64,000 nucleotides of DNA, from assembly GCA_902785275.1 (NCBI GenBank), contig CACZYB010000002.1:99495-163494 (forward strand). Direction: 5' to 3'. This DNA is from an uncultured Pseudomonadota bacterium (GTDB lineage Bacteria > Pseudomonadota > Alphaproteobacteria > Rs-D84 > CACZYB01). Shown one piece after another: positions 997 through 60,842 of the stretch. The notes beneath the pieces were generated by a model, which was not told the origin of the DNA, did not search any database, and was given only the letters and a program-made list of their open reading frames with translations. Position 1 is the stretch's first letter. Each line of letters starts with the position of its first letter. The translations under genes were made by a program, and so were the position numbers.

Positions 997-3051
997 ATGA
1001 GAAAGCTTATAACTTATTGCTCTTTGTTTATTTTGACAGGTTGTCTAACAAGTGGTGGCTCAGGTTCATACCGTTCATCAGTAAAAACAAAAACAGGTGG
1101 AAAAAAAACTGAAAAAAAGGAAAATCCAAGGAAAAAATCTGACGATGTTTCTACATCATCTACTCTTAAATACTTATCCAGAGCAGAAACAGTAAAGGAT
1201 AAGGTCTTAGAAACAAATAGTAAAGCAATAAAAAAATCATTCGAAACTTATAATAGAAACGTAACAACGGTTGATGATAAACTAACTGTGAATGAGGCAA
1301 ATCTTGCAAAGGCAGACGAATATTTGATTGCTTCTACCCGTACGGAAAATCCAATAGATATCTCCAGTATGATTAGCACAATTACTTCTTTGCAAAGTGA
1401 TTATATTGAATATACTGCATATAAAAGTGCTTATGATAGTTTGAATCACGTTCTTAAAACTTCGGCTGACTTTACAAATGCGAACGAATATGCAAACTAT
1501 CTTCAATCAAATGCTGAAAGCGGAATTTTAAAAGAACAAAAAGTTTCAACTGTTCGTGAAGTTGATGATGCTGTATACATCGCAAAAATTGAAAAGGCAT
1601 ACTTTGATTATTTAAAGAAACATATTTCTGGTCTAACATCTGTTGACTATACTGCATATTCTTCAGCAGATGGTTCTTCTGCTGCATATACAGATTTGAT
1701 GACAAATTTAGCAGCACAAGTTGAAACACAAAAATCTTCAATGGATACAAAAAAAGATGCTGTTATAAGTGATTTAAAAGCTCTTGATCCTTCTGTTAAT
1801 GAATTGCCATTAACAATTAATGACGTTGTAAAATATTGGAGAACACAACAAAAAATCCTTATCGCAATTCAAAATACAAAATACCTTCCTGATGTTTCAA
1901 CAAAAACTGATGATATGAAGAGTGTTGCATTAAACGAAGATTTGAATACTGTAAATATAAAATATGTTTATAACAAAGGATTAGAAGATTACACACTTGA
2001 TGCGGGAAAGGCAAATGGCGAAACTTTGTCATTTAAGGCAAGTGATTTTGAAAAGGATACAATAACTCGTTCATATGTCGCAAAAAAGGCTTCTGATGAA
2101 GAAACTATTGAAAATGCTATAACATTCCTTCCAAATCTTTGGGCTTATTTGAATAATGGTGGAAAAACAGATTCCGAATTCAAAAAAAGAAAAGATTATG
2201 CTCAAACTGTTTTTGTTAAAGTAAAAAATGGAACTGCAACAGTTGGAGAAAAAGCTGACTTTGAAAATTGGGTAAAGGATCCAAATACAGGTATATCTTT
2301 TATAAATATAGAAAACCTTTCAAATGTTTCATCTGATGATTATAAAAACTGGAATATTGCAAACATAATTTTAAAGTCCGCAAAAGATGTTGATTTTACT
2401 TTAACAAAAAAGGAAACAAAAACAGATACTGTTTACCTTGGTGGTGCTTATACTGGTTTGACATTCTCTGACTACGGAATTTGGCAAACAAAGGCTTCTA
2501 GTTATTATACAGGAAATAAAACATTGCTTTCATACTTAAGTTCAACTTCTGCAAAGTCAGTTAACGTAGTAGGTAATTATATGTTTTACAGTGGTCTTGA
2601 AAGCTTTAAACAAGCATATCCTGCAAATCAAACAAGAGGTTCTGTATCATTTGTTGGTAATACACTTGCTTATGCGGATTTGGTTGGAACTTCGGGTGAA
2701 AGAATAAGTAAGCAATTAATTGGTGCAGCAAAGCTTTCTATTTCACCTGCATCTGTTGCTGACTTAACACTTGGGTTTGAAGGTTGGTATGGATTTACTA
2801 TTGAAGGAATTGATGTTTCAACACCAGATTTCTCATCAGAAAATCCTGCAAAGATAACAACAAGTTGTGCTTCATGTGGTTGGGTAAAGTCTCCAACATT
2901 CACATCAAAAGTTTTCGGTTCACAATACGGACTTGATGCAGAAAAACCTACCGAAGCTGTTGGTGCATATAAGATTGAAACAAATGATGTTGCAGATCCA
3001 TCAAAGTACACAAAAGTTATAATCAAAGGTGCCTTTGGTGTAAAAGAATAA
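997..3051 (+). CDS. Large putative surface lipoprotein with C-terminal TbpB-like beta-barrel
   Basis: Lipobox LTGC (Cys16), Gly/Ser/Lys-rich tether, helical middle, beta-rich C-terminus ending GAFGVKE as in TbpB/Slam-type substrates. Confidence 0.6.
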   Translation: MRKLITYCSLFILTGCLTSGGSGSYRSSVKTKTGGKKTEKKENPRKKSDDVSTSSTLKYLSRAETVKDKVLETNSKAIKKSFETYNRNVTTVDDKLTVNEANLAKADEYLIASTRTENPIDISSMISTITSLQSDYIEYTAYKSAYDSLNHVLKTSADFTNANEYANYLQSNAESGILKEQKVSTVREVDDAVYIAKIEKAYFDYLKKHISGLTSVDYTAYSSADGSSAAYTDLMTNLAAQVETQKSSMDTKKDAVISDLKALDPSVNELPLTINDVVKYWRTQQKILIAIQNTKYLPDVSTKTDDMKSVALNEDLNTVNIKYVYNKGLEDYTLDAGKANGETLSFKASDFEKDTITRSYVAKKASDEETIENAITFLPNLWAYLNNGGKTDSEFKKRKDYAQTVFVKVKNGTATVGEKADFENWVKDPNTGISFINIENLSNVSSDDYKNWNIANIILKSAKDVDFTLTKKETKTDTVYLGGAYTGLTFSDYGIWQTKASSYYTGNKTLLSYLSSTSAKSVNVVGNYMFYSGLESFKQAYPANQTRGSVSFVGNTLAYADLVGTSGERISKQLIGAAKLSISPASVADLTLGFEGWYGFTIEGIDVSTPDFSSENPAKITTSCASCGWVKSPTFTSKVFGSQYGLDAEKPTEAVGAYKIETNDVADPSKYTKVIIKGAFGVKE

Positions 3052-3134
3052 AAATTTCTTGAAATTAAAAAAAATCAAATGTACAATCCCGTGCTATATC
3101 TAATCAAAATATAGCACTTTTTACGAGGTTTAAA

Positions 3135-4514
3135 ATGGAAAATGAATTGGCTACAAAGCCGATAAAGAATTTAATTATCAAATTTGCCTTACCATCAATC
3201 ATCGCATTTTTGGTAAGTTCTCTATATAATATGGTGGACCAAATTTTTGTTGGTAACTATGCCGGATATTTGGGTAACGCTGCAACATCAATTATATTTC
3301 CAATTTTTATTTTTGGTATGGCTGTTGCAAGCTGTATCTCGGATGGTGGTGTAGCATACTTCTCTCTCCAACTTGGTGCTGGACACAGAAAAATTGCAGA
3401 AAAGATTTTCGGTAATGTATTAAGTTTATTAATAGTATTTCCAATACTTATCACAACACTTTCTTACATATTTATTGACGATATGTTGGTATTTTTCGGT
3501 GCAACACCGGAAATTTTTCCACTTGCAAAAACCTATGCTCAGATTATGTTTGTTGGTACACCTGTATTCTTGCTCGGTATGGGATTAAATGCATTTATCC
3601 GTGCAGATGGAAGTCCAAAGTACGCAATGATTTCTATGCTTATTGGTGCAATATTAAACCTTATTCTTGACCCAATATTTATATTTTGGTTTGATTGGGG
3701 AATTGCAGGTGCGGCCTGGGCCACAGTTGTATCAGAAATATTTTCATTTATTTGGGCAATATCATATTTGCCACAATTCAAATCTATGAAAATAAAGATT
3801 ACAAGTCTTAAATTAAGCTTTCCAATAATACGTAAAATTTTCATTTACGGAATGTCAAACTTCTTTATTTCATCAGCAATCACATTTGTTGTAATTGCAT
3901 ATAACAACAGTCTTAAAAAATACGGTGCCGAAAGTATTTACGGAAGCAACATTCCACTTTCCGCCTATGCCTTGACCGCAAAGGTAAACCAAATCTTTAT
4001 GTCATTTATGATTGGTTTGGGTATCGGACTTCAGCCAATTGTTGGTTTTAACTATGGCGCAAGAAATTATAAAAGGGTAAAGGAAACATTTAAAAAAACT
4101 ATTTATATTGCTGTGACAATAGGACTTGTATTTTCAGTATTGTTACAGTCATTCCCATACATATTTATACGTATGTTTGGAAGTGGCTCTCAACTTTATT
4201 ATGACTTTGCAAGTATGTCATTCAGAATAATCTTTACTGGCCAAATCTTTATAGCAATAGGTATCATCACAAGTAACTTTTTCCGTGCAATAGGAAGACC
4301 TTGGATGTCTGTATTTTCTGCGGGATCAAGATTTACTGTATTCTTCATTCCAACAATATACTTTCTTCCAAAATTATTGGGAATAAAGGGTGTATTGTGG
4401 GTAACACCAGTTGCTGAGCTTTTATCGGCAAGCTTCTCATTATGGCTTATCTCTATGGAAATGAAAAAGCTTAAAAAATTGATTAAAAACGAGGAAAAAC
4501 GAAAAGCGGTTTAG
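3135..4514 (+). CDS. MATE family efflux transporter (MepA-like)
   Basis: YNMVDQIFVG, RADGSP, NLILDPIFI, GIAGAAWAT and QPIVGFNYGA motifs; about 12 hydrophobic segments. Confidence 0.93.
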   Translation: MENELATKPIKNLIIKFALPSIIAFLVSSLYNMVDQIFVGNYAGYLGNAATSIIFPIFIFGMAVASCISDGGVAYFSLQLGAGHRKIAEKIFGNVLSLLIVFPILITTLSYIFIDDMLVFFGATPEIFPLAKTYAQIMFVGTPVFLLGMGLNAFIRADGSPKYAMISMLIGAILNLILDPIFIFWFDWGIAGAAWATVVSEIFSFIWAISYLPQFKSMKIKITSLKLSFPIIRKIFIYGMSNFFISSAITFVVIAYNNSLKKYGAESIYGSNIPLSAYALTAKVNQIFMSFMIGLGIGLQPIVGFNYGARNYKRVKETFKKTIYIAVTIGLVFSVLLQSFPYIFIRMFGSGSQLYYDFASMSFRIIFTGQIFIAIGIITSNFFRAIGRPWMSVFSAGSRFTVFFIPTIYFLPKLLGIKGVLWVTPVAELLSASFSLWLISMEMKKLKKLIKNEEKRKAV

Positions 4515-8881: not shown

Positions 8882-9811
8882 TTATTTTTTAAATTCCAAA
8901 CCAATATCTGTGAAAAATTCTGGACTGTCACGCCAATTTTCTTTTACCTTTACAAACAAGAAAAGATTAACTTTTTTACCAACAACAAATTCCATTTCTT
9001 TTCTTGCTCTTGTACCAATAGCTTTTATTTTTGAACCTCTTTCACCAATGATTATAGATTTATGGTTTTCCGAGCTTGTATAAATAGTTTGCTTTACAGT
9101 AAAGGCATCCTTTTCTTCATCAATATTTTCTGTCTTTATTGATATTGCATAAGGAAGTTCCTGATGTAAAAGTTCGTAAACTTTTTCACGGGTAATTTCC
9201 GAAAGTCTAAGCTCTAATGGCAAATCACTTTTTATATCACTATCGAAATAAAATGGTGATTCTGGCATCTGGTCTTTTACCCAAGAAATAAGGTCATTAA
9301 CACCGTCATTGTTAAGTGCGGAAATCATAAAAATTTCCTTAAATAAATTTGGTGCAACTTCCATAACTTTTGCAGTTAGCTTCAAAAGATCCTCTTTTTT
9401 AAGCAAGTCAACCTTGTTAAGACAAAGAGAAATAGGAGTTTGAACAGTTCTTAATTTCTTAACAATGTTATTGAATGTTTCGGTAATCCCCTTTGATGCA
9501 TCAAGCAAAAATACAATACAGTCACTATCATTCATTGCGGACCAAGCTGATGAAACCATTGCCTTATCAAACTTTCCCTTTGGATTAAAGATTCCAGGTG
9601 TGTCAATAAATACCATCTGTACATTATCTTCGGTTTTTATACCACGAATTTGATTACGTGTAGTTTGTACCTTGTGCGAAGTGATTGAAACCTTTGTTGC
9701 CAAGATTGTATTTAAAAGTGTCGATTTACCACTATTTGTCGCGCCAATAAGTGCAACAAAACCACATTTTGTATTAGAGTAATTTTTTAAATCTTTCTCA
9801 TTCTTTTGCAT
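8882..9811 (-). CDS. era: GTPase Era
   Basis: GxxNSGKST, QTTR, DTPG, NKVD, QELPY and KH-domain IIIGxxGSKIK. Confidence 0.96.
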   Translation of the reverse strand: MQKNEKDLKNYSNTKCGFVALIGATNSGKSTLLNTILATKVSITSHKVQTTRNQIRGIKTEDNVQMVFIDTPGIFNPKGKFDKAMVSSAWSAMNDSDCIVFLLDASKGITETFNNIVKKLRTVQTPISLCLNKVDLLKKEDLLKLTAKVMEVAPNLFKEIFMISALNNDGVNDLISWVKDQMPESPFYFDSDIKSDLPLELRLSEITREKVYELLHQELPYAISIKTENIDEEKDAFTVKQTIYTSSENHKSIIIGERGSKIKAIGTRARKEMEFVVGKKVNLFLFVKVKENWRDSPEFFTDIGLEFKK

Positions 9812-10622
9812 TTCTTTCTCTTTCTTTTTGGTCTTCTATTTCTATTTTTTCATTTACGGATTTTACAAATTCTTCTATTTGTTTTAAAATCCCAAACTGT
9901 TCCCATAGATTAAGTATAACAAATCTTCCGCGACATGCCATAATTTTGTTATACTCAGCTATAAATTTTCTTTTACTAAGGTAAAAAGTCTTGTCAAAAT
10001 TGGCAATACAAACAGTCAAAGCAGTTTCATCAATGTTGTTATTGAAATTTTCCGCACATAAATGAAAATACCTAAGAATTCTAAGTGGATCAATATCAAC
10101 ACTTTCCAATGGATTACCAATAAATTTGACAACACCATTTTTTATATCTTCTATACCATTATATGGATCAATAATTTCAGCATTCGGACTTACATATATC
10201 GCATTACAGGTAAAATCACGTCTTTTTGCATCGATTACCGGATCCTTTACGTATTTTACAGTAGGGAACCTGGAGTAAAGTTTTTTTCTTACCTTATCAT
10301 TCTTCATGTCTTTTGAATTTTTCTCTACGGTCTTTTCATACGTATCTTGCCTAAAGGTTGTAATTTCATATTTTTCATTATCCCAAAAGGTCCTTACCGT
10401 ACCAAAATTAAGCCCAGGTGAATCTTCCCTTAAATTATTTTCACGAAGAAGATTTATTACATTCTGTGGAAGCATACTTGTCGCCAAATCAATATCAGTT
10501 GATTCTTTTCCAACAAAGTGGTCACGAACAGCCCCGCCAACGACATAAATCTGTTCCCCGCTTTTTAAAAACAAGTTGAATAATTTTTGCAAATACATAT
10601 TTTGTAAAAATTTAAAATTCAT
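9798..10622 (-). CDS. cca: Class II tRNA nucleotidyltransferase (CCA-adding family), short form
   Basis: VGGAVRD, DIDLAT, EITTFR, RRDFTCNA, DPLRILR; only 274 aa. Confidence 0.82.
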   Translation of the reverse strand: MNFKFLQNMYLQKLFNLFLKSGEQIYVVGGAVRDHFVGKESTDIDLATSMLPQNVINLLRENNLREDSPGLNFGTVRTFWDNEKYEITTFRQDTYEKTVEKNSKDMKNDKVRKKLYSRFPTVKYVKDPVIDAKRRDFTCNAIYVSPNAEIIDPYNGIEDIKNGVVKFIGNPLESVDIDPLRILRYFHLCAENFNNNIDETALTVCIANFDKTFYLSKRKFIAEYNKIMACRGRFVILNLWEQFGILKQIEEFVKSVNEKIEIEDQKERERNAKE

Positions 10623-40283: not shown

Positions 40284-40359
40284 GGGTGTTTAGCTCAGCT
40301 GGTAGAGCAAATGACTTTTAATCATTGGGTCACAGGTTCAAGTCCTGTAACACCCACCA
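40284..40359 (+). tRNA. tRNA-Lys (anticodon UUU), CCA encoded
   Basis: GGGTGTT/AACACCC acceptor stem, GCTC/GAGC D arm, AATGA-CT-TTT-AA-TCATT anticodon arm, ACAGG-TTCAAGT-CCTGT T arm. Confidence 0.97.
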
Positions 40360-44789: not shown

Positions 44790-44822
44790 TTGCAAAATTT
44801 GCAATTATCGAGTTTTCTGCCA
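44790..44822 (+). repeat. 33-bp direct repeat, copy 1
   Basis: TTGCAAAATTTGCAATTATCGAGTTTTCTGCCA; 31/33 identical to 49370-49402. Confidence 0.85.
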
Positions 44823-45078
44823 ATTATCCATCATTAAAGTGGAAAACTAGTTACGAATGGTATAGGATTAATATTCTCCCAACCAAAATTAGAGATTTTT
44901 AGAAAATTTGAAAAGATATCCTCAAAATTACTTTGTAAATGGTGCTGGTTTGGAATTATTAATTAATGACATATTGAAAAGTTAAATATTCAATATGTTT
45001 CAATTATTGAAGTATTTATTGATTTTTGAATATATTGAATTGTAATATATTGTATAGATATATTATGGTTTAGTTAAA

Positions 45079-49369: not shown

Positions 49370-49402
49370 TTGCATAATTTGCAATTATCGAGTTTTCTGA
49401 CA
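49370..49402 (+). repeat. 33-bp direct repeat, copy 2
   Basis: TTGCATAATTTGCAATTATCGAGTTTTCTGACA. Confidence 0.85.
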
Positions 49403-49472
49403 TTTTGTTTTTTTTAAAATCAATTTAGTAATTATGTGAAAAATGGAGTTAAGCACTAGATATAAAATAAAT

Positions 49473-51953: not shown

Positions 51954-52787
51954 ATGCCAGGAAAAACAATTCAAATATTTTTACCTGATGGAAATCCTAA
52001 AGGAGTAAAGAAAGCTTCAATAACTACAGATAAAGTTGAAATAATACAAATTCCAAGATCCATTCTTGCTGAAAATAATAAATTATTAGATTTTAATGGT
52101 GTTTATATTTTAGTTGATAGTCTTAAAGCTGAAAAGCCTGAAATATATGTAGGTAAGGGAGATGTAAAAAGTAGAACATATTCTCATGATAATAAAAAGG
52201 ATTTTTGGAATACAGTATTTGCTATTAGATTAAAAGATGAAACAGGATTTAATGACGCTCATAATAGTTATCTTGAATATTATTTTGTAAAGAAAGCTCA
52301 AGATTTAAATCAAGCTATTATGAATGAAAACAAACAAACTCCAAAATGTCCTAATCTTACAGAAGAAATTATTTCTGAATTACATTATTATATTCAAACA
52401 ATTGAAACATTATTATCAACATTAGGCTTAAAATGTTTTCAACCTATTGAAAATAATGAAAAAACAGAAAAAGATATATTTATATGTTCAGATAAATACG
52501 GAAATATTGGTGAAGGAGAATATACAGAAGAAGGATTTTTATTATATAAAGGTGCAATTTGTAATCTAGATTTACATAAAGGAACAGATAAATTACCTCA
52601 AAGGGAAGATTTAATATCATCTGGATTGTTAAAAGAACAAGATGGTCATTATGTCTTACAAGAAAATAAACTTTTCTTATCTGTATCAACAGCATCATCA
52701 ATAGTATTAGGTAGAAGATCAAATGGATGGTTAGAATGGAAAAATAGTGATGGTAAAACACTTGATGAAATAGAAAGAAAACATTAA
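51954..52787 (+). CDS. GIY-YIG nuclease family protein with DUF4357-like C-terminus
   Basis: GKTIQIFLPDG, GVYIL..YVG, HDNKKDFW, YLE and S.STASSIVLGRRSNGWLEWK motifs; GGAGG RBS. Confidence 0.85.
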   Translation: MPGKTIQIFLPDGNPKGVKKASITTDKVEIIQIPRSILAENNKLLDFNGVYILVDSLKAEKPEIYVGKGDVKSRTYSHDNKKDFWNTVFAIRLKDETGFNDAHNSYLEYYFVKKAQDLNQAIMNENKQTPKCPNLTEEIISELHYYIQTIETLLSTLGLKCFQPIENNEKTEKDIFICSDKYGNIGEGEYTEEGFLLYKGAICNLDLHKGTDKLPQREDLISSGLLKEQDGHYVLQENKLFLSVSTASSIVLGRRSNGWLEWKNSDGKTLDEIERKH

Positions 52788-53317
52788 TGCTAAAAGTTAT
52801 TGAACCAAATAGAGATTTATGGGAAAGTGCGGTTGGGTTTGCTAAAGAAGTAAAAGCCTCCCCGACTGAGTTTGATATCTATGCAAGCGAACATTTGATA
52901 AATAATATTGAAAATCCAGATGGATATTTTGATTTGGTTGAAAAGTGTAAACACGGCTTTGGTGAATATGTCCCAAACCAAACTTTGTGGATTGTGGATG
53001 ATGACAAGGTTGTTGGCATGTTTGACTTACGACTTCAACTTAACGAAAAACTTATGAATCGTGGTGGTAATTTGGCATACCAGGTTGCTCCTTCATTTCG
53101 TGGAAAAAGAACAGTGTTTCACGCCTATCCACTACTTTGCGAATACATAAAGTTACATTATGGTTTTGATAAAATTTTGATAACTTGTGATGAAAGGAAC
53201 ATTCCATCACACAAAGTTATCATTTCACTTTTTGACGAGTTTGGTGGTGAAGAACTTCCACCATCCAAAATATCCGATACTGAAACCCAAATCCGATATT
53301 GGATAAATGTGAAGTAG
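52787..53317 (+). CDS. GNAT family acetyltransferase
   Basis: VGMFDLRLQLN..L...GGNLAYQVAPSFRG, LITCDERNIPS, RYWI. Confidence 0.85.
   Translation: MLKVIEPNRDLWESAVGFAKEVKASPTEFDIYASEHLINNIENPDGYFDLVEKCKHGFGEYVPNQTLWIVDDDKVVGMFDLRLQLNEKLMNRGGNLAYQVAPSFRGKRTVFHAYPLLCEYIKLHYGFDKILITCDERNIPSHKVIISLFDEFGGEELPPSKISDTETQIRYWINVK
53277..53317 (+). repeat. 41-bp direct repeat, copy 1 (3' end of the GNAT gene)
   Basis: 37/41 identical to 59137-59177. Confidence 0.9.
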
Positions 53318-53372: not shown

Positions 53373-53427
53373 TTGCAATTTTAAAATCTTGGTTTATATT
53401 TAACTTAAATATGAAAATGATTTCCAT
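53373..53427 (+). promoter_or_regulatory. Promoter with Fur/Zur-like operator
   Basis: TTGCAA (53373-78), 16 nt, TATATT (53395-400); ATGAAAAT-G-ATTTCCAT 8-1-8 palindrome (7/8) at 53411-53427. Confidence 0.65.
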
Positions 53428-53446
53428 TTTTATAATGAGGTTTAAA

Positions 53447-53845
53447 ATGACTAAATACAATACAAAACAATCGCAAATAATCTTAGATTTCCTTAAGCAA
53501 AATAGTAAGAAGGATTTGACTGCAGAGCAGATTTTACAATATGTAAACAGAAAGAAAAAAATTTGCGGGCTTACTACGGTATACCGCCAACTTAAAAATC
53601 TTGTATCTGAAAACAAAATCAAAAAATACTATATTGCAAACAATTTGTCCTGCTTTTATCAATATATTTCAGATAATGAATGTCATGAACATTTGCATTT
53701 TAAATGTGAGAAATGTGGAAAGACTTTACACCTTGAAAAATTTAATATTCAGGACATAAATTTAACTTTATCAAAGCAATATAATATTCTTGTTGATACG
53801 AGTAAAACTGTTCTTTATGGTCTTTGTAATAATTGTCAAAAATAG
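53447..53845 (+). CDS. Fur-family metalloregulator (Zur-like)
   Basis: TAEQI, TTVYRQL, HEHLHFKCEKC, LYGLCNNC; ATG 53447 after GAGG. Confidence 0.88.
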   Translation: MTKYNTKQSQIILDFLKQNSKKDLTAEQILQYVNRKKKICGLTTVYRQLKNLVSENKIKKYYIANNLSCFYQYISDNECHEHLHFKCEKCGKTLHLEKFNIQDINLTLSKQYNILVDTSKTVLYGLCNNCQK

Positions 53846-53854
53846 GAGATTAAA

Positions 53855-54793
53855 ATGAGAGTTTCTTTTTTCGGTAAAGGGGGAAGTGGTAAAACATCCC
53901 TTTCTTCATCATTTATAAAATTTTTAAATGAAAATAGAAAAACTGTTTTGGCTGTTGATGCTGATATAAATGTAAATCTTGGGTCAAGTTTGGATATGAA
54001 TACAAAGTTTATTGGTGATGATTTTAGCGAGATTTCCGAATTTTTGGAACCTCAAGATATCAATAAACCAATTATTGGAAGTACACCTCCAACATATAAA
54101 AGTCGCTTTATTAAACCGGATTTAAGTGATGACTTTTTCAAAAAATTTGCAACATTTAAAGGTGATAACTTAGCACTTCTTACCGTTGGAACATATACGG
54201 ATAAAAAAGTTGGGTATGCGTGTTATCACTCTAAACTTGGTAGTGCGCTTTTGATTTATAACAGACTTTTGGATGATAATAATTTCTTTGTTGTTTCCGA
54301 TGCAACTGCTGGAATTGACAGTGTTGGAACAAGTATGTTTTTTGTTTCAGATATAAATATTTTTGTTGTAGAGCCAACCAATAAAAGTATTGGTGTTTAC
54401 AAAGATTTTAAAGAAATTACTAAAAATTATCCGATTAAAACTTTTGTAATTGGAAACAAAGTCCGTACGCAAGGAGATATCGATTATATTACCGAGCAGA
54501 TTGGTGCAGAAAATATCATTGGGTTTGTTTCTGATTCCGAACATCTTCGTGATTATGAAAAAGGTGATAAATCTGGTATTGATAGATTTGTTGCAGAAAA
54601 CAATGAAATCAATAAAAAGATTTATAATTTACTTTCAAATACTACAAAAAATTGGGCTGAATATTACAATATTTTAAAGCAAGTTTATTCCGATGATTGT
54701 GGTGATTGGTATAGTCAGTTTTATGGCGAAGATCTTACAAAATATATTGATGAAAATTTTGATTATGAGGATGTAATAAAGAACAATGTTTAA
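53855..54793 (+). CDS. CooC/MinD-like ATPase
   Basis: GKGGSGKT deviant Walker A, VDADIN.NL, GYACYH, DATAG, VVEPT, NKV. Confidence 0.8.
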   Translation: MRVSFFGKGGSGKTSLSSSFIKFLNENRKTVLAVDADINVNLGSSLDMNTKFIGDDFSEISEFLEPQDINKPIIGSTPPTYKSRFIKPDLSDDFFKKFATFKGDNLALLTVGTYTDKKVGYACYHSKLGSALLIYNRLLDDNNFFVVSDATAGIDSVGTSMFFVSDINIFVVEPTNKSIGVYKDFKEITKNYPIKTFVIGNKVRTQGDIDYITEQIGAENIIGFVSDSEHLRDYEKGDKSGIDRFVAENNEINKKIYNLLSNTTKNWAEYYNILKQVYSDDCGDWYSQFYGEDLTKYIDENFDYEDVIKNNV

Positions 54794-56225
54794 ATTTACG
54801 CCAAAGGTTCATAACAGCATTGAAAATGTTATTGAGGACAAAGATTTCTTGTTTGATTTAGGTGATTGTTATGGTTCACCATACAATGTTTTAATACCGG
54901 AAAATATCGATGAAAATATCAAAAGTTTTCAAGATGTATTTAAGCAAAATAATGTTGTTGGTAAAATCTTTTATGCTCATAAATGTAATAAGTCAAAGGC
55001 AATAATTAAGCAGATGCTTAAGAATAATATTTGCATTGATGTTGCATCACTCGGTGAACTTATAGATGTGGTAAGTTGTGGCTTTTGTGGTGATAAGATT
55101 GAAGCAACAGGACCAAAAAATGATGACTTTATAATACTTGGCCTTCAACATAAAATTACATTTAATGTGGATAACTTTTCCGAACTTGATACTATTGTGA
55201 AATACCATAAAAAACTTGGGATAAAGGGTGCGGTAAAAATTCTTATCCGCCTTAACAATTTTCATTCTGATGAAACAAAAATTATAAATAAGGTTAGTCG
55301 TTTTGGTTTTCCAATTTCCGAGTTTGAAAATGTTTTGGATTTTGTTTCTGAACACAGGGATGTATTCAATCTTATTGGTATTTCGTTTCATCTTGATACT
55401 GTAAATATGATTGAAAAAATTATTGCAATTGAAAATTGTATTTCACTTTTTGAAGTTATGTTTGATAGAGGCTTTGAACCATACGTTCTTGATATTGGTG
55501 GAGGGTTTAAACTTAATTATATTGAAGATAAAGCTCAGTGGAATGAAAGTATTTCTGAATTAAAGGAAGATATTGCAACTGGCAAAAACAGTCTTACCTG
55601 GAACGGAAAAACATTTGGCTTGAGTGTAAAAAACAACATACTTCACGGCACATTAAATATTTATAATTATTACGATGAGTTGGTAAAGGAAAAGTTTTTG
55701 GATGCAATACTTCAAACAAAACTTTCCAAATATCAAAACCGAAAAATTGCAGAAATTTTAAGTGAGAATATGATCGAACTTTATATCGAACCAGGACGAA
55801 GCCTTCTTGATAATGTTGGTTTCAATGTGGCAAAGGTGAACTTTACCAAGATGGATGCAAAGGGAAATACTTTGGTTGGACTTGATATGAAACGTTCGGA
55901 CCTTTTGATTGGAGAGCAAGAAATGTTCGTTGATCCAATCCTTGTATCACAAAAGGAAAACCAGAAAAAAGATGATTGTGGCGTTTTCTTTATAGGAAAT
56001 CTTTGTATGGAAAATGATATGATTTTTAATAGAAAAGTTTTTCTTGAAACTGTACCACAAAAGGATGATTTAATCGTATTTATGAATACAGCCGGATATT
56101 TTATGGATTTTGATCAATCAACAACCCTTGGGCAAAAGGTTGCAACAAAGGTTATACTTTCAAAAAAAGGAAATGGAAAATACAAACAATATACTGATGA
56201 AAACTTTAACCCATTTAAGGAATAA
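54786..56225 (+). CDS. Y4yA-family PLP-dependent enzyme (fold III, LysA-like decarboxylase)
   Basis: YAHKCNKS (PLP Lys), DVASLGEL, SRFG, FHLD, DIGGG, EPGRSL, GNLCME, NTAGYFMD. Confidence 0.82.
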   Translation: MFKFTPKVHNSIENVIEDKDFLFDLGDCYGSPYNVLIPENIDENIKSFQDVFKQNNVVGKIFYAHKCNKSKAIIKQMLKNNICIDVASLGELIDVVSCGFCGDKIEATGPKNDDFIILGLQHKITFNVDNFSELDTIVKYHKKLGIKGAVKILIRLNNFHSDETKIINKVSRFGFPISEFENVLDFVSEHRDVFNLIGISFHLDTVNMIEKIIAIENCISLFEVMFDRGFEPYVLDIGGGFKLNYIEDKAQWNESISELKEDIATGKNSLTWNGKTFGLSVKNNILHGTLNIYNYYDELVKEKFLDAILQTKLSKYQNRKIAEILSENMIELYIEPGRSLLDNVGFNVAKVNFTKMDAKGNTLVGLDMKRSDLLIGEQEMFVDPILVSQKENQKKDDCGVFFIGNLCMENDMIFNRKVFLETVPQKDDLIVFMNTAGYFMDFDQSTTLGQKVATKVILSKKGNGKYKQYTDENFNPFKE

Positions 56226-56228
56226 ATT

Positions 56229-57560
56229 ATGTTATACAAAAGTGTTTTGGATTTAATTGGTAATACACCAATAATTGAAATTGATAAAAAAATAACTGGT
56301 TTAAAAAATGTAAATCTTTTTGTAAAATGCGAACTTTTTAATCCATTTGGTTCATTAAAAGACAGGGCAGGATATGCCATGTTAAAGGACAAGATTGACG
56401 AGATTAAAAAAAGTGGTGCTGTGGTTATAGAGTCGTCATCTGGTAATACAGCCAAGGCATTGCAAATTGTTTGTTCAATTAACGGTATACCATTTAAAAC
56501 TGTGACTAACAGAATTAAGGTACCAGAAACAAAAAATATTCTTAAAGTTTGTGGTGCAGAAATTGAGGAACTTCCTGGACTTTCTGAATGTCCTGATCCA
56601 ACAGATCCAAATGATCCTGTTGCGTATATTGAACGACTTGTATCGGAAAATAATGGAAAATACTATCATACAAATCAATATACAAACCTTAATAATCCTA
56701 AAATACATTTTGAAACAACTGGCCCAGAAATTGAAATGGATATAGGTCAAGTTGATTATTTCTTTTCCACACTTGGAACAACTGGATCATCCCGTGGTGT
56801 CATTGAATATTTAAGTGGCAAAAATCCAAATTTAAAAAAAATTGGTATTATTGCTGATAAGGGAGATAATATTCCAGGTATAAGAAACAAGGATGAAATG
56901 TATGAAGTCGGCATTTTTGAAAAGTCTCTCTACGATGAAATACTTACAGTAAATTCTATGCAGGCGATTGAACAAATGCTTATTCTTAACCGCAAGATTG
57001 GTATCTTGGGTGGTCCAACAAGTGGTGCTTGTTTCTTTGGTGTGATGGAATACCTTAAAAAAATTGATGAATCTTTGGATAAGTCTGTTAATGCAGTTTT
57101 CGTTGCATGCGACAGAATGGAATGGTATATGTCTTATATTGAAAAGCGAAGACCAGATATTTTTGCCACTGATACAAAGGTTGAAAATATCAGAAATATT
57201 TCGGATGGAGATATTGAAAATTATGCAAAAACTATTGATGTGGAAAATGTTTCAACTTGGATAGAAGAGAATAAGCCAATCATTATTGATATGCGTGGAA
57301 ACCTTGCCTATAAAAACGGACATATAAAAAACTCAATCAATATTACTGATGTGTTTTTTGATGATATTGTCGAAAATGGGCTTCCTTTTTCATCGGAAAA
57401 CAAAGTCCTTCTTGTTTGCGCAACTGGGGATAAATCAAAAAAATACAGTGCATTGTTGAATAAAAAAGATCTTAATGTTTACTCTCTTAATGGTGGTATG
57501 GTCGAGTATAGAAATCAAAATCAACCTATCGTTCGTAATCTTAAAAGGACACTTGTATAA
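56229..57560 (+). CDS. Cysteine synthase-family (CysK/CBS-like) enzyme fused to a rhodanese domain
   Basis: IGNTP, NPFGSLKDR, ESSSGNT, GTTGS, GPTSGA; C-terminal IDMR...GHI..S.NI, CATGDKS, L.GG. Confidence 0.88.
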   Translation: MLYKSVLDLIGNTPIIEIDKKITGLKNVNLFVKCELFNPFGSLKDRAGYAMLKDKIDEIKKSGAVVIESSSGNTAKALQIVCSINGIPFKTVTNRIKVPETKNILKVCGAEIEELPGLSECPDPTDPNDPVAYIERLVSENNGKYYHTNQYTNLNNPKIHFETTGPEIEMDIGQVDYFFSTLGTTGSSRGVIEYLSGKNPNLKKIGIIADKGDNIPGIRNKDEMYEVGIFEKSLYDEILTVNSMQAIEQMLILNRKIGILGGPTSGACFFGVMEYLKKIDESLDKSVNAVFVACDRMEWYMSYIEKRRPDIFATDTKVENIRNISDGDIENYAKTIDVENVSTWIEENKPIIIDMRGNLAYKNGHIKNSINITDVFFDDIVENGLPFSSENKVLLVCATGDKSKKYSALLNKKDLNVYSLNGGMVEYRNQNQPIVRNLKRTLV

Positions 57561-58780
57561 TGACCAAACAGTGTAAATATTTTGTTGATGATAAAAACTT
57601 GGATATAAACCTTGGTGAAAAAGTAAAGGCTGATTTCCCAATTTTTAAAAACAGTGATGTTGTGTATTTTGATAACAGTGCTACCACACAAAAGCCACAA
57701 TGTGTAATTGATGCTACTCAAAATTACTCTTTAAATTTTTGTGCAAACATTGGACGTGGTTCTTATAGCTGGGCAAATAAAGCCGGAGCCGAGGTGAAAA
57801 AAGCTAGGCAAAAAATTGCTTCGTTTATTGGTGCAAATGTTGATGAGATATTTTTTACAAGCGGTGCAACCGATGCATCGAACTTAATTGCCTATGGTTA
57901 TGGTCTTAAAAATCTAAATACTGATGATGAAATAATGTATTGTCTAGACGATCATAAATCCACCTATCAACCATGGAAAAATCTTGTAAAAAATCTTGAA
58001 CACTTTGGGAAAAAGGTTGCTGTAAAAAATATCCTTATTGATACAGAGGGTGATTATAAGGAGGATGATTTGGTTGATAAAATCACTCCCAAAACAAAGG
58101 TGGTAATTCTCACCCATATCCACAATACCTATGGGTTAGAGATGGATATTGAAAAGATTGTTCCTCTAATAAGGGCAAAAAATCCCGATACAAAAATTGT
58201 GTTGGATTGTTCACAAAGTGTTGGGCATATTCCTGTTGATGTTCACAAACTTGATGTAGATTTTGCTTTCTTTTCCGGACATAAGATGTTTGCCGATACA
58301 GGTATCGGAGTTTGCTATATCAAAAAATCCACTCAACCGGAAATGCAAAAATTTAAGGTAGGTGGTGGTAATAAATTATTTGAAAGTGGAACCCAGAATA
58401 TTTCTGGCATACTTTCACTTGGGGTGGCAGTGGACTATATAAATTCTATTGGTATCGAAAAAGTTGAGGCATATATTCGCTATCTGACAAGGTACCTTTA
58501 CACAAAACTTAAATCTATTCCACAAATAGAGTTTTCAAAGGGTATAGATAAGTGTTCCTGCCCTTTGGGGTTTGGTATAATTTCATTTGGTATAAACGGT
58601 ATTCAAAGCAGTGATGTCGGCGAAGTCCTTAACGATTATAATATTTTTGTTCGTACAGGTGATTTTTGCCGAACCACAAACGGTGAAGACTTCATCCGCA
58701 CAAGCTTTCATATATACAACACCATTTCTGACATAGATAAGTTCGTAAAGGTAATAAAGTATATTGTATCAGAGGGGTAG
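57560..58780 (+). CDS. SufS-like cysteine desulfurase (class V aminotransferase)
   Basis: DFPIF, YFDNSATTQKP, FTSGAT, DCSQ, SGHKMF, FESGT, RTGDFC, SFHIYN. Confidence 0.88.
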   Translation: MTKQCKYFVDDKNLDINLGEKVKADFPIFKNSDVVYFDNSATTQKPQCVIDATQNYSLNFCANIGRGSYSWANKAGAEVKKARQKIASFIGANVDEIFFTSGATDASNLIAYGYGLKNLNTDDEIMYCLDDHKSTYQPWKNLVKNLEHFGKKVAVKNILIDTEGDYKEDDLVDKITPKTKVVILTHIHNTYGLEMDIEKIVPLIRAKNPDTKIVLDCSQSVGHIPVDVHKLDVDFAFFSGHKMFADTGIGVCYIKKSTQPEMQKFKVGGGNKLFESGTQNISGILSLGVAVDYINSIGIEKVEAYIRYLTRYLYTKLKSIPQIEFSKGIDKCSCPLGFGIISFGINGIQSSDVGEVLNDYNIFVRTGDFCRTTNGEDFIRTSFHIYNTISDIDKFVKVIKYIVSEG

Positions 58781-59136: not shown

Positions 59137-59177
59137 ATACCGAAACCCAAATCCAATATTGGATAAATATGGAGTAG
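59137..59177 (+). repeat. 41-bp direct repeat, copy 2
   Basis: ATACCGAAACCCAAATCCAATATTGGATAAATATGGAGTAG. Confidence 0.9.
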
Positions 59178-59286: not shown

Positions 59287-60489
59287 ATGAAATATATAAA
59301 TAGTGCCAGAAATGTTTGTATAAATGATTACAATATTCTTGTTGCGACCAAAGGTCCTTTGACTTCTCTTCAAAAGGAAAAACTTGATTCTGTTTTTGGT
59401 ACAGCTGAAATACTTTCTTTTAATAATTATGTTGAATTTAAGGATTTTGTTGATTATAAAAATACAAGATTTCTGAATTTAAAAAAAATTGAAGATAACA
59501 TAGAAAATACAATAAATATTCCATCTCCTGGTGAGGTAAAAGAAATTCTTTTTAAACAATTTGATAAATCAAAGTATAGTTTTACTTGTTTTAATATGTA
59601 TGAGAATATTAAAAATTCAATTCCAGATCGTTTTAAAAAATTAGGATTAAATATTTCGTATTTTTTTAAGATATTTGAAGCCGATGCAAACAAAAGTTGT
59701 AGACCTTTGAGTGGAACAGATAAAGGTGGTCTTTTTTATTGGAATAAAAATAAGGTTGAAGTTGCATTTCCTGTTCTTATATTTGATAAAAAAATAAAAG
59801 AATATGATACTAATCTTCTTAGTAGTCTTTATTTTGATTCATCATATATTTTGATTCACGAACTTAAACATGCATTTAATCATCATAATTTTATTAATAC
59901 TTTGAAACATAAAAAAATTTCTCCTTATGATTATCTTAGATTTTTTAAATATGATGAATATTCTGCTGAAATGGAGAAAATTTTTTATTATATAAATACA
60001 AGAGAAATGAATAAGAAAGGATTATCTATTTTTAAGTATAAAAGATTTGAAAAATATGTGGATAGCCATCCTAATTATTTCGAAAATTTACCTGAATTTG
60101 TAAATTTTGTAAAACATGATTTAGAGGAAACTTTTTTTAAGTTTAACAGTCATGTTTATACTGAAGATTATTATTTAGAAAATGTTGCTGAATTTATACG
60201 TACATTCCCTAATTATTTTTCAAATAAATCTGATGATGGTGTATATGAAGCATTGAAAAAAAATTCTTTGTCATTTGAAATATTTAATCCTAAAAAAGGT
60301 AAAGTGGAAGTTGTCGATTTATCATCCTATTTTAAAGATGAAGATCTTTCTTCTAAAGAAAAATATATACTTGATAAACTATTTAGAAAAGTAAAAAATG
60401 CAGTGAGAGAATTAAAAAAAGAAACTTCGATTTCAAATAAAACTTTAAAGATTTTGGCAAATGAATTAGATATGCTAATACAGAAGTAA
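59287..60489 (+). CDS. Hypothetical protein with HExxH zincin-like motif
   Basis: LIHELKHAFNH followed by DEYSAE; GAGG RBS; TTGACA upstream. Confidence 0.6.
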   Translation: MKYINSARNVCINDYNILVATKGPLTSLQKEKLDSVFGTAEILSFNNYVEFKDFVDYKNTRFLNLKKIEDNIENTINIPSPGEVKEILFKQFDKSKYSFTCFNMYENIKNSIPDRFKKLGLNISYFFKIFEADANKSCRPLSGTDKGGLFYWNKNKVEVAFPVLIFDKKIKEYDTNLLSSLYFDSSYILIHELKHAFNHHNFINTLKHKKISPYDYLRFFKYDEYSAEMEKIFYYINTREMNKKGLSIFKYKRFEKYVDSHPNYFENLPEFVNFVKHDLEETFFKFNSHVYTEDYYLENVAEFIRTFPNYFSNKSDDGVYEALKKNSLSFEIFNPKKGKVEVVDLSSYFKDEDLSSKEKYILDKLFRKVKNAVRELKKETSISNKTLKILANELDMLIQK

Positions 60490-60521
60490 CACTAACTCAA
60501 AAGCTTGCATCTTATGACATT

Positions 60522-60842
60522 GTGAATAATGAGATAAATCAAATAGTTAATGGAGTCGTAGATTTTGCAAACAATATGGGTAAATACTTTGATAGTTCGG
60601 ATTTTTCTTTAAAAAAGGAAATTTTACAAATTTTAATTCCGAACTCTTTATTGTATTCAAAAAAGTTAGTATTATCAATAACTAAACCGTTCGATACTAT
60701 GCTAAAAAGTAAGAATTATAAAGTATGGTGCACGATATTACGTGACTTCCGAGCTAATAATTGGCAAGAATTACTTAGCTTATATAATAAAATAAAACAC
60801 TTTCAACAAGAGTATGAAAAAGAGCAAAAATTAAAAGTTTAA
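60522..60842 (+). pseudogene. Possible C-terminal remnant of a large serine recombinase
   Basis: KKEILQIL..N..L..KKL.....KPF...W....DFR resembles recombinase C-termini; no catalytic domain and no clear RBS. Confidence 0.35.

Follow-up and report, generated by a model that had tools for sequence, protein, structure and literature searches.

We describe here an operon of five genes found in a 64,000-nt stretch (the entire stretch is referred to as the window) of contig CACZYB010000002.1, which originates from an uncultured alphaproteobacterium. The operon encodes a Fur-family regulator, a CooC-like ATPase, a decarboxylase of the Y4yA family, a fusion of a cysteine synthase-like enzyme with a rhodanese (hereafter the fusion protein), and a SufS-like cysteine desulfurase. 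The fusion protein shares its domain order, a pyridoxal 5′-phosphate (PLP)-dependent cysteine synthase-like domain followed by a rhodanese-like domain, with two fungal enzymes, namely aspergillomarasmine A (AMA) synthase and Fda4. AMA has been described as a natural Zn2+ metallophore (PMC8829947), AMA synthase was reported to condense O-phosphoserine with L-aspartate, and Fda4, a cysteine synthase-like PLP enzyme with a rhodanese-like domain, to condense O-phosphoserine with L-alanine, after which an FAD oxidoreductase releases L-2,3-diaminopropionate (L-Dap) (PMC12751119). The fungal enzymes and the fusion protein may have the chemistry in common as well, in that a serine-derived aminoacrylate would be converted into a metal-chelating or Dap-type amino acid. 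On the other hand, the fungal enzymes form C-N bonds without a desulfurase partner, and the identity with AMA synthetase is 20-21%, whereas the fusion protein possesses an invariant rhodanese Cys, a SufS-like partner in 42 of 43 loci, and a novel loop bearing C121.

The second point of comparison is the staphyloferrin B pathway, in which SbnA and SbnH represent, like their counterparts in the operon, a CysK/SbnA-like enzyme and a fold-type III PLP decarboxylase in a metal-regulated small-molecule pathway. In contrast to that pathway, the operon lacks a synthetase of the nonribosomal peptide synthetase (NRPS)-independent siderophore (NIS) type, an SbnB-like enzyme, and a transporter, and a sulfur relay appears to replace the nitrogen route. 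In Mycobacterium tuberculosis, CysM works with CysO and MoeZ and uses a protein-bound sulfur donor, and a persulfide relay also serves SepCysS. CysM is the best relative of the PLP domain of the fusion protein, and both systems would draw on a carrier charged by a rhodanese persulfide rather than on free sulfide. Nevertheless, the operon has no ThiS-like carrier, its rhodanese is fused directly, and the product would go to a decarboxylase, which sets it apart from the synthesis of cysteine for proteins. The literature on Y4yA turned up only papers on rhizobial type III secretion regions, and one report on the rhizobial neighbors y4yA-y4xP-y4xN, where a Y4yA-type decarboxylase likewise stands beside an SbnA-like enzyme, calls their role enigmatic (PMC3973906). 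No publication on the operon turned up in the literature on its combinations of enzymes, regulator, and metallophore.

A preliminary description of the window had likened the logic of the operon to that of metallophore pathways. The analogy gains from a NIS cluster with distant homologues (locus L020), from a trio of sbnA, FAD-protein, and Y4yA genes on a Chondrinema plasmid, and from the fold match to AMA synthetase. Altogether, the operon probably makes a small, uncharacterised metal-binding molecule that contains S and N. To the more specific proposal, that a persulfide relay under Zur-like control yields a beta-thio amino acid, from which decarboxylation produces an aminothiol or thioether-amine metal ligand, we give about an even chance. 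The anatomy, conservation, and intact active sites described below are observations, from which the product and the metal are predicted. We regard the operon as an uncharacterised, mobile, metal-linked sulfur-ligand module of the SbnA-plus-decarboxylase kind.

Organization and Co-conservation of the Operon

All of the five genes lie on the forward strand. The open reading frame (ORF) of the Fur-family regulator (Pfam FUR) spans 53411-53845, likely coding from 53447, and is followed by those of a CooC-like SIMIBI P-loop ATPase (53855-54793; Pfam CbiA/AAA_31/ArsA-type P-loop), a Y4yA-family fold-type III PLP decarboxylase (54786-56225; Pfam Orn_Arg_deC_N), the fusion of a CysM-like PLP beta-replacement domain with a rhodanese (56229-57560; Pfam PALP and Rhodanese), and a paralogue of the SufS/CsdA-type (group II) cysteine desulfurases (57560-58780; Pfam Aminotran_5). 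The junctions in this order are +9, -8, +3, and -1 nt, exactly the tight coupling that had been described. The claimed absence of an NRPS/NIS ligase, sufBCD, and a transporter was likewise borne out, as a Pfam/NCBIfam scan of the window proteins detected none of them within or adjoining the operon. The host genome is 1.05 Mb in size and 95.7% complete. Public runs carrying this stretch are ruminant-gut metagenomes; one such run (X1) is its possible source, another (X2) contained pieces 97-100% alike to the stretch, and a third (X3) a relative approximately 91% alike. No RNA run was listed among the carriers.

The preliminary description also took the genes for a self-contained, co-conserved module, and the neighborhoods of their homologues agree with it. 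Besides those from a metagenome scan, ten distinct loci were recovered from genome collections, and all five genes were colinear in eight of the ten, amid unrelated flanks. In another (L019; genome G430, contig C53), only the regulator, decarboxylase, and fusion genes were found, beside a NicO-type permease gene, while L020 comprises a distant decarboxylase/SbnA-like pair inside an IucA/IucC (NIS) siderophore cluster. The ORFs of contig C53 overlap on both strands, which suggests a high GC content, and this contig, assigned to an approximately 0.8-Mb genome of the window's family, may be a binning contaminant.

Roughly 337 clusters of the family were detected at E values up to 1e-30. The metagenome scan was conducted with the closer family alignment, as the broader one was too diverse, and identified 348 relatives, from which 80 loci were kept and tallied by hand from the locus table. 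They comprised 63 loci of the close subfamily (GC 0.23-0.73), 13 distant ones, two with the decarboxylase only, and two fragments. The fusion gene directly followed the decarboxylase gene in all 55 close loci that extended far enough, and a SufS-like gene came next in 42 of 43, L047 being the exception. The ATPase was found in 38 of the 50 informative close loci, and a Fur-family gene in at least 20 of the 63, plus L063 by Pfam.

Several versions of the module carry additional or substituted genes. An expanded 12-gene cluster (L040, 5464-19032; also L038, L046, L050, and L065) includes a hydroxylase-like gene, two methyltransferase genes, and another regulator-ATPase pair, and further encodes a 547-aa protein that belongs to no known family, a CrtI/amine-oxidase-like flavoprotein, and a 443-aa protein containing a GNAT. 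The enzyme trio of Streptomyces sp. NBC_01237 has a CobW_C (COG0523-type) gene upstream, in place of that of the CooC-like ATPase, and genes for a methyltransferase and a pyridine-nucleotide disulfide oxidoreductase downstream. Metal transporters adjoin the trio in some loci, namely NicO in L019 and, elsewhere, VIT1 with an RND/CusB-type pump or a P-type ATPase. In a Firmicute lineage (L002/L023), glutathione peroxidase and thioredoxin-reductase-like genes lie directly downstream.

The 13 distant loci contain a decarboxylase and PALP pair without rhodanese, together with ATP-grasp ligases and arginase. Such a pair occurs with ATP-grasp ligases, arginase, and a second decarboxylase in the low-GC loci L084 (8980-17036) and L090 (8980-14753), and this cluster is a different, uncharacterised small-molecule pathway. 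On two large low-GC contigs (L079, 8246-9644; L097, 8822-9121), only short fragments of the ATPase and decarboxylase genes were found, which may be decayed copies of the operon.

The distribution of the module is patchy. Only one of 400 other genomes in a sample of the phylum had a match, of the distant type, and matches were found in 6 of 200 other genomes of the order and 3 of 13 of the genus. The window proteins scored higher to a locus in a metagenome-assembled genome labelled Clostridia (L002; regulator 158, ATPase 456, decarboxylase 614, fusion 739, and desulfurase 536 bits) than to two same-genus loci, L017 (79, 374, 486, 617, and 370 bits in the same order) and L018 (66, 375, 485, 622, and 383 bits). 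As the similarity does not follow relatedness, these scores point to horizontal transfer of the operon. The L018 contig also encodes MlaD, an Lnt-like acyltransferase, and a Slam-type outer-membrane protein (1148-3604 and 8935-10302); thus, the host lineage is diderm despite its tiny genome (approximately 0.8 Mb).

Enzymes Encoded in the Operon

In the fusion protein, PLP-binding K44 and rhodanese C397 were invariant in 23 of 23 diverse members, in all of which the rhodanese is fused to the beta-replacement enzyme. The same holds true for the substrate loop S70-S71-G72-N73 (SGNT), the phosphate loop G183-T184-x-G186-S187, and C397, G400, and S403 in the rhodanese loop CATGDKS (Pfam Rhodanese, 54.8 bits). 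The protein had been termed a CysK-rhodanese fusion. The rhodanese part of this assignment stands, but the PLP half turned out to be CysM-like, as CysM was the best-scoring model (172 bits vs. a cut-off of 413), above the SbnA-family model TIGR03945 (161.8 bits vs. 349.95) and the cysK equivalog (138.2 bits vs. 350.95). The PLP domain also shares the PGIR and CDR motifs with Escherichia coli CysM, a protein that accepts bulky sulfur donors and in which PGIR is the Arg-containing motif. A new loop, SEC-PDP, carries C121, which was invariant in 23 of 23 members. In the AlphaFold2 (AF2) model of the fusion protein (pLDDT 89.3), residues 119-124 fell below 50, and this loop was the only low-confidence stretch apart from the last five residues, which fits a mobile active-site loop. 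The top Foldseek match of the model was AMA synthetase (8h4q/8h4h), aligned over both domains and 466 columns. No other CysK-like paralogue was found in the genome by phmmer. The search of the genome for SATase_N was a weak test, its control having been detected in only 6 of 14 genomes.

The decarboxylase retains the full catalytic set of the group of ornithine and diaminopimelate (DAP) decarboxylases, i.e., PLP Lys, His, GGG loop, EPG, Cys, Asp, and Tyr. K66 was invariant in 67 family members, and K66, H202, GGG238-240, EPG335-337 (E335/G337), C407, D411, and Y438 were invariant or nearly so. Plasmid homologues bear the RefSeq name "Y4yA family PLP-dependent enzyme," and the score to the lysA equivalog TIGR01048 was 126.6 bits, against a cut-off of 297.9. 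Neither dihydrodipicolinate synthase (DHDPS; PF00701) nor DAP epimerase (PF01678), both expected for meso-DAP synthesis, was detected in the 95.7%-complete genome. There was no other fold-type III decarboxylase paralogue in the genome by phmmer, and no match to the decarboxylase turned up in a search of phages.

As for the desulfurase, H132, D216, Q219, S239-G-H-K242, R365, and C370 were invariant in 19 of 19 sequences, and the protein shows the hallmarks of class V, group II desulfurases (the PLP Lys in SGHK, the stacking His, and the Cys after R-x-G). The PLP lysines K66, K44, and K242 and the rhodanese and desulfurase Cys residues are thus all intact, as had been pointed out. The score of the desulfurase to the SufS subfamily TIGR01979 was 320.5 bits, below the cut-off of 475.1. 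The operon desulfurase has no SufE/SufU/SufBCD context; a separate, canonical SufS (474.5 bits to Pfam) is encoded on contig C4 and SufB/D on contig C8, neither of which is the contig of the operon. Every curated NCBIfam equivalog score of the operon proteins falls far below its cut-off.

The ATPase carries the deviant Walker A motif GKGGSGKT, kept in 48 of 51 homologues (the other three are gapped there). CooC1 was the top match both by sequence (E = 3e-10) and, in Foldseek, by fold (PDB 3kje; E = 3e-11; AF2 model pLDDT 93.3). C123-Y-H125 of the ATPase aligned with the C-Y-C metal site of CooC1, and the C-x-C motif of the CooC dimer interface itself is absent. The preliminary description had noticed this replacement, and both C and H proved invariant in all 51 homologues, and Y in 49, from loci of very different composition. 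A deviant Walker A is common to the ATPase and the CooC, UreG, HypB, and COG0523 NTPases, and C-Y-H resembles the Cys-Pro-His of UreG. The ATPase differs from CooC by the C-Y-H motif, by a helical C-terminal extension of approximately 80 aa, and by the genome around it, 95.7% complete, in which no Prismane/carbon monoxide dehydrogenase (CODH; PF03063) match was detected. No CODH client was found in any annotated locus either. A role in CODH maturation was rejected, the genome having no CODH. In the Streptomyces cluster, a COG0523-type gene takes the equivalent place of the ATPase gene, and COG0523 genes are frequent Zur targets (PMC6103462). The C-x-H ATPase and its COG0523 stand-in link the module with metal handling. 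Within the window, a 317-aa frame on the reverse strand contains a weak cobW-family match (9359-9652; 22.3 bits), the only G3E-type match in the genome.

Regulator and Putative Operator

The regulator most likely starts at 53447 rather than 53411, because its orthologues align from that Met and GAGG precedes it at 53437-53440. With this start, the palindrome ATGAAAAT-G-ATTTCCAT at 53411-53427 lies upstream of the gene and not within the coding sequence. The resulting protein of 132 aa contains two CxxC pairs, the first of them preceded by a C79-HEHLH84 segment. It scored 57.2 bits to Pfam FUR (cut-off 23.1), whereas the NCBIfam models of Fur, PerR, and Zur gave 29-57 bits against cut-offs of 146-220. 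In an alignment of 19 cluster-associated regulators, C87, C90, and C127 were invariant and C130 was kept in at least 90%, in line with a structural Cys4 site. A His-rich segment ahead of the CxxC pairs occurs in most of the 19, yet is not conserved; in the window's clade, it has a Cys beside HxH. By phmmer, the regulator is the sole Fur-family protein in the genome.

Promoter-like hexamers, TTGCAA-16-TATATT (53373-53400, forward strand), match the consensus only, and such matches are no commoner than in shuffled sequences (35 found vs. 33.2 expected). A Fur-family 7-1-7 operator-like palindrome, TGAAAAT-G-ATTTCCA (53412-53426, forward strand), lies 12-26 nt downstream of the -10-like hexamer; the sequence at 53411-53427, of which it is part, is as the preliminary description wrote it. 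In the aligned upstream regions of five orthologous loci, AAT(A/T)TGAAAA(T/C)GATT(T/A)(C/T)CA(T/A)(T/A)TT was the only conserved block (five of five); the core TGAAAAyGATTwyCA was kept in all of them, and the remaining spacer was not conserved. The degenerate core is found at a single site in the 1.05-Mb genome. When up to two mismatches were allowed, the perfect 15-mer gave four matches in the window, not significantly more than the 2.4 expected, and the argument for an operator therefore rests on the conservation. A similar box occurs twice in the 71%-GC-type Streptomyces locus L102, once upstream of the decarboxylase gene and once after the desulfurase gene, and none of 200 shuffles reached that count. 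The earlier claim that the operon is under a Fur-family box is thus strengthened by the conserved upstream regions and the recurrence in Streptomyces, and such control appears likely. The box also resembles the actinobacterial Zur box. Hints of zinc sensing are confined to the Cys next to HxH and to the box in the Streptomyces cluster bearing a COG0523-type gene.

Proposed Function and Alternative Interpretations

We propose that a metal-loaded Fur-family repressor, most likely Zur-like, would sit on the box just downstream of the -10 hexamer and be released when the metal is scarce. The SufS-like enzyme would then take the sulfur of cysteine as a persulfide and hand it to C397 in the rhodanese domain of the fusion protein. 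In the CysM-like domain, a PLP-aminoacrylate would be formed from O-phosphoserine, O-acetylserine, or cysteine, and joined to the relayed sulfur, possibly via C121. The product may be a beta-thio amino acid beyond ordinary cysteine, such as cysteine persulfide or a lanthionine-type thioether, because a relay from cysteine to cysteine would otherwise be futile. Removal of CO2 by the Y4yA-family decarboxylase would leave a cysteamine-, thialysine-, or bis-aminoethyl-sulfide-like amine. Sulfur ligands are proposed here by analogy with the nitrogen route, in which Dap is followed by an ethylenediamine unit. A dimer of the CooC-like ATPase may bind the metal through two Cys and two His of the C-Y-H motifs and exchange it with the ligand or a pathway enzyme, or pass the scarce metal to clients. 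A thiol/disulfide product would fit the disulfide reductase in Streptomyces and the thioredoxin-reductase-like neighbors in one Firmicute lineage. The five-gene form has no transporters, which argues against a classical secreted metallophore, and an intracellular buffer or ligand is equally likely. A dedicated exporter or importer was not found in the window, and transporters appeared only in some distant loci.

Several points weigh against this proposal. The product, the substrate, and the metal are all predicted, and the metal of the regulator is not readable from its sequence, the scores to the Fur, PerR, and Zur models being far below the cut-offs. The ATPase is absent from 12 of the 50 informative metagenome loci. 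Neither the window operon nor the eight other five-gene loci contain an exporter or importer, which would be uncommon for a secreted metallophore. AMA synthase and Fda4, the characterised relatives of the same architecture, form C-N and not C-S bonds (PMC12751119). A relay that starts from cysteine and ends in a cysteine-like compound would seem pointless unless the product contains additional sulfur or two C3 units, which is an assumption. Lastly, one lineage adjoins peroxide-defence genes (glutathione peroxidase and thioredoxin-reductase-like), and several neighboring transporters are of the efflux type, fitting metal excess rather than starvation.

The first alternative is an N-linked product, i.e., that the fusion protein condenses O-phosphoserine with the amine of an amino acid, like AMA synthase, SbnA, and Fda4. 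The decarboxylase would next produce an N-(2-aminoethyl) amino acid or an ethylenediamine-type chelator as in staphyloferrin B or ethylenediamine disuccinic acid (EDDS), itself a chelator of the ethylenediamine type, and SufS and the rhodanese would supply only a substrate (L-alanine from cysteine) or a regulatory persulfide. We consider this unlikely but serious, because all the characterised relatives of the fusion architecture form C-N bonds. AMA synthetase is the top fold match over both domains, and the Chondrinema trio and the NIS cluster L020 place related genes in similar company. Moreover, L040 and L067 carry a CrtI/amine-oxidase-like FAD protein and a GNAT, which are counterparts of the FAD oxidoreductase and the N-acetyltransferase of the Fda4 pathway. 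However, the window operon lacks an FAD oxidoreductase, the catalytic Cys of the rhodanese is invariant in 23 of 23 members, and a desulfurase with an intact Cys stands beside the fusion in 42 of 43 loci. The PLP domain also scores higher to CysM than to SbnA (172 vs. 161.8 bits) and has the PGIR and CDR motifs in common with CysM.

The next alternative, to which we assign a small chance, is a stress-sulfur module, in which a PerR-like or non-zinc sensor governs a protective low-molecular-weight thiol or persulfide without metal scavenging. The thiol would serve in redox or metal-excess defence, and the ATPase would metallate or protect one enzyme. The peroxide-defence genes directly downstream in the L002/L023 lineage, the disulfide oxidoreductase in the Streptomyces cluster, the efflux-type metal transporters adjoining L037, L049, and L019, and the PerR scores nearly equal to those of Fur all agree with this idea. 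On the other hand, the regulator, as we read the alignment, lacks the sensing His that PerR and Fur carry just ahead of the first DNA-binding helix, the Streptomyces version has a COG0523-type gene, and the box resembles the actinobacterial Zur box.

Sulfur delivery to cofactors or macromolecules appears very unlikely. Thiolation routes usually begin with a desulfurase-rhodanese pair, and, together with a NifH/ApbC-like ATPase, the SufS-like enzyme and the rhodanese could form an auxiliary system for Fe-S clusters, thio-cofactors, or tRNA, expressed under iron limitation, with the other two PLP enzymes as metabolic add-ons. The Fur-family control and the fold relatives of the ATPase, which include the nitrogenase Fe protein, BchL, and ApbC, can be reconciled with such a system. 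Nevertheless, the ATPase is closest to CooC1 in both sequence and fold, the rhodanese is fused to a beta-replacement enzyme in 23 of 23 members, and the most constant partner is the decarboxylase (55 of 55). Besides, no scaffold, ThiS/MoaD-like carrier, or tRNA enzyme was found in any locus, and the genome already has SufS and SufBD.

It is scarcely credible that the enzyme genes are ordinary lysA, cysM/cysK, and sufS that just happen to have a Fur regulator and a partition-type ATPase as operon partners: the nearest named sequence relatives are indeed DAP decarboxylase, CysM, and SufS, but the scores (126.6/297.9, 172/413, and 320.5/475.1) are far below the curated cut-offs, DHDPS and DAP epimerase were not found in the 95.7%-complete genome, the gene order is fixed across GC 0.23-0.73, and a second, canonical SufS is encoded elsewhere. 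A housekeeping role in lysine or cysteine synthesis was rejected on the same scores and the missing DHDPS and DAP epimerase, and these results support the earlier view that the enzymes are not ordinary LysA, CysK, and SufS.

Returning to the sulfur-ligand proposal, its broadest form is tentative and somewhat doubtful, namely that the operon is an unrecognised, very widespread route to a free aminothiol/thioether-amine ligand, in which a persulfide-fed CysM-like enzyme and a dedicated decarboxylase are served by a new, C-x-H class of CooC-like zinc/nickel chaperones, and that it travels between gut Firmicutes and reduced-genome bacteria as a 5.9-kb cassette flanked by repeats. If true, such a ligand would be the sulfur counterpart of ethylenediamine-type zincophores, and the module would add a sulfur-based branch to the non-NRPS, non-NIS metallophore or metal-buffer pathways (staphyloferrin B, EDDS, and marasmines). 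The ATPase would represent a new subclass of CooC-like metallochaperones, which have an invariant Cys-x-His site but lack a CODH client, and the fusion protein would be direct biochemical proof that a rhodanese persulfide can supply the PLP beta-replacement enzyme to which it is fused. The module spans 23%-73% GC, from ruminant-gut bacteria with genomes of approximately 1 Mb to Streptomyces, and therefore hundreds of gene clusters would be annotated once one product had been identified. It could also account for the survival of very reduced bacteria when metals are limiting. Streptomyces sp. NBC_01237 is a named, cultivable carrier, which makes the question testable.

A Cassette within a Putative Genomic Island

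The operon is, as judged from its flanking sequences, a 5,860-bp cassette inserted at the 3' end of a GNAT gene (52787-53317), because 41-nt direct repeats bracket it, the left one lying within that gene. The left repeat (53277-53317, forward strand) makes up the final 41 nt of the GNAT gene; the right one (59137-59177, forward strand) is identical to it at 37 of 41 positions and contains the palindrome ATCCAATATTGGAT. The 27-nt core of the repeat had two matches in the window and none in 100 shuffles. This repeat-flanked, horizontally moving cassette is a new point absent from the preliminary description. In a same-genus genome (G424), the GNAT gene is present at 90% identity and followed by different DNA, but no clean empty site was found in this comparison, nor a contig joining across the cassette in four metagenome runs.

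The region from tRNA-Lys (40284-40359) through approximately 22 kb of accessory-type genes (40284-62620) looks like a genomic island. It contains genes for a KAP NTPase, DUF4379/NUMOD, patatin, DinB and YolD, LysR, DUF4357, the GNAT, the operon, and DUF3768, and no recombinase or integrase gene was recognised in it. A second direct repeat of 36 nt (44790-44825 and 49370-49405; 92% identical) brackets a 4.6-kb segment that encodes a 303-aa unknown protein, a patatin-like protein, a 162-aa unknown protein, and a DinB/UmuC-like polymerase with a YolD-like gene. This segment may be another cassette of the same island.

Additional Observations

No Rfam element was found in the window between 44000 and 64000. 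To the right of the cassette, 59287-60489 encodes a 400-aa protein with an HELKH (HExxH-type) motif and no Pfam/NCBIfam match. The adjacent stretch of approximately 237 nt (60495-60731) recurs elsewhere in the genome (contig C5) at 90% identity and in three same-genus genomes at 84-93%, and is either a small repeated element or a conserved small gene.

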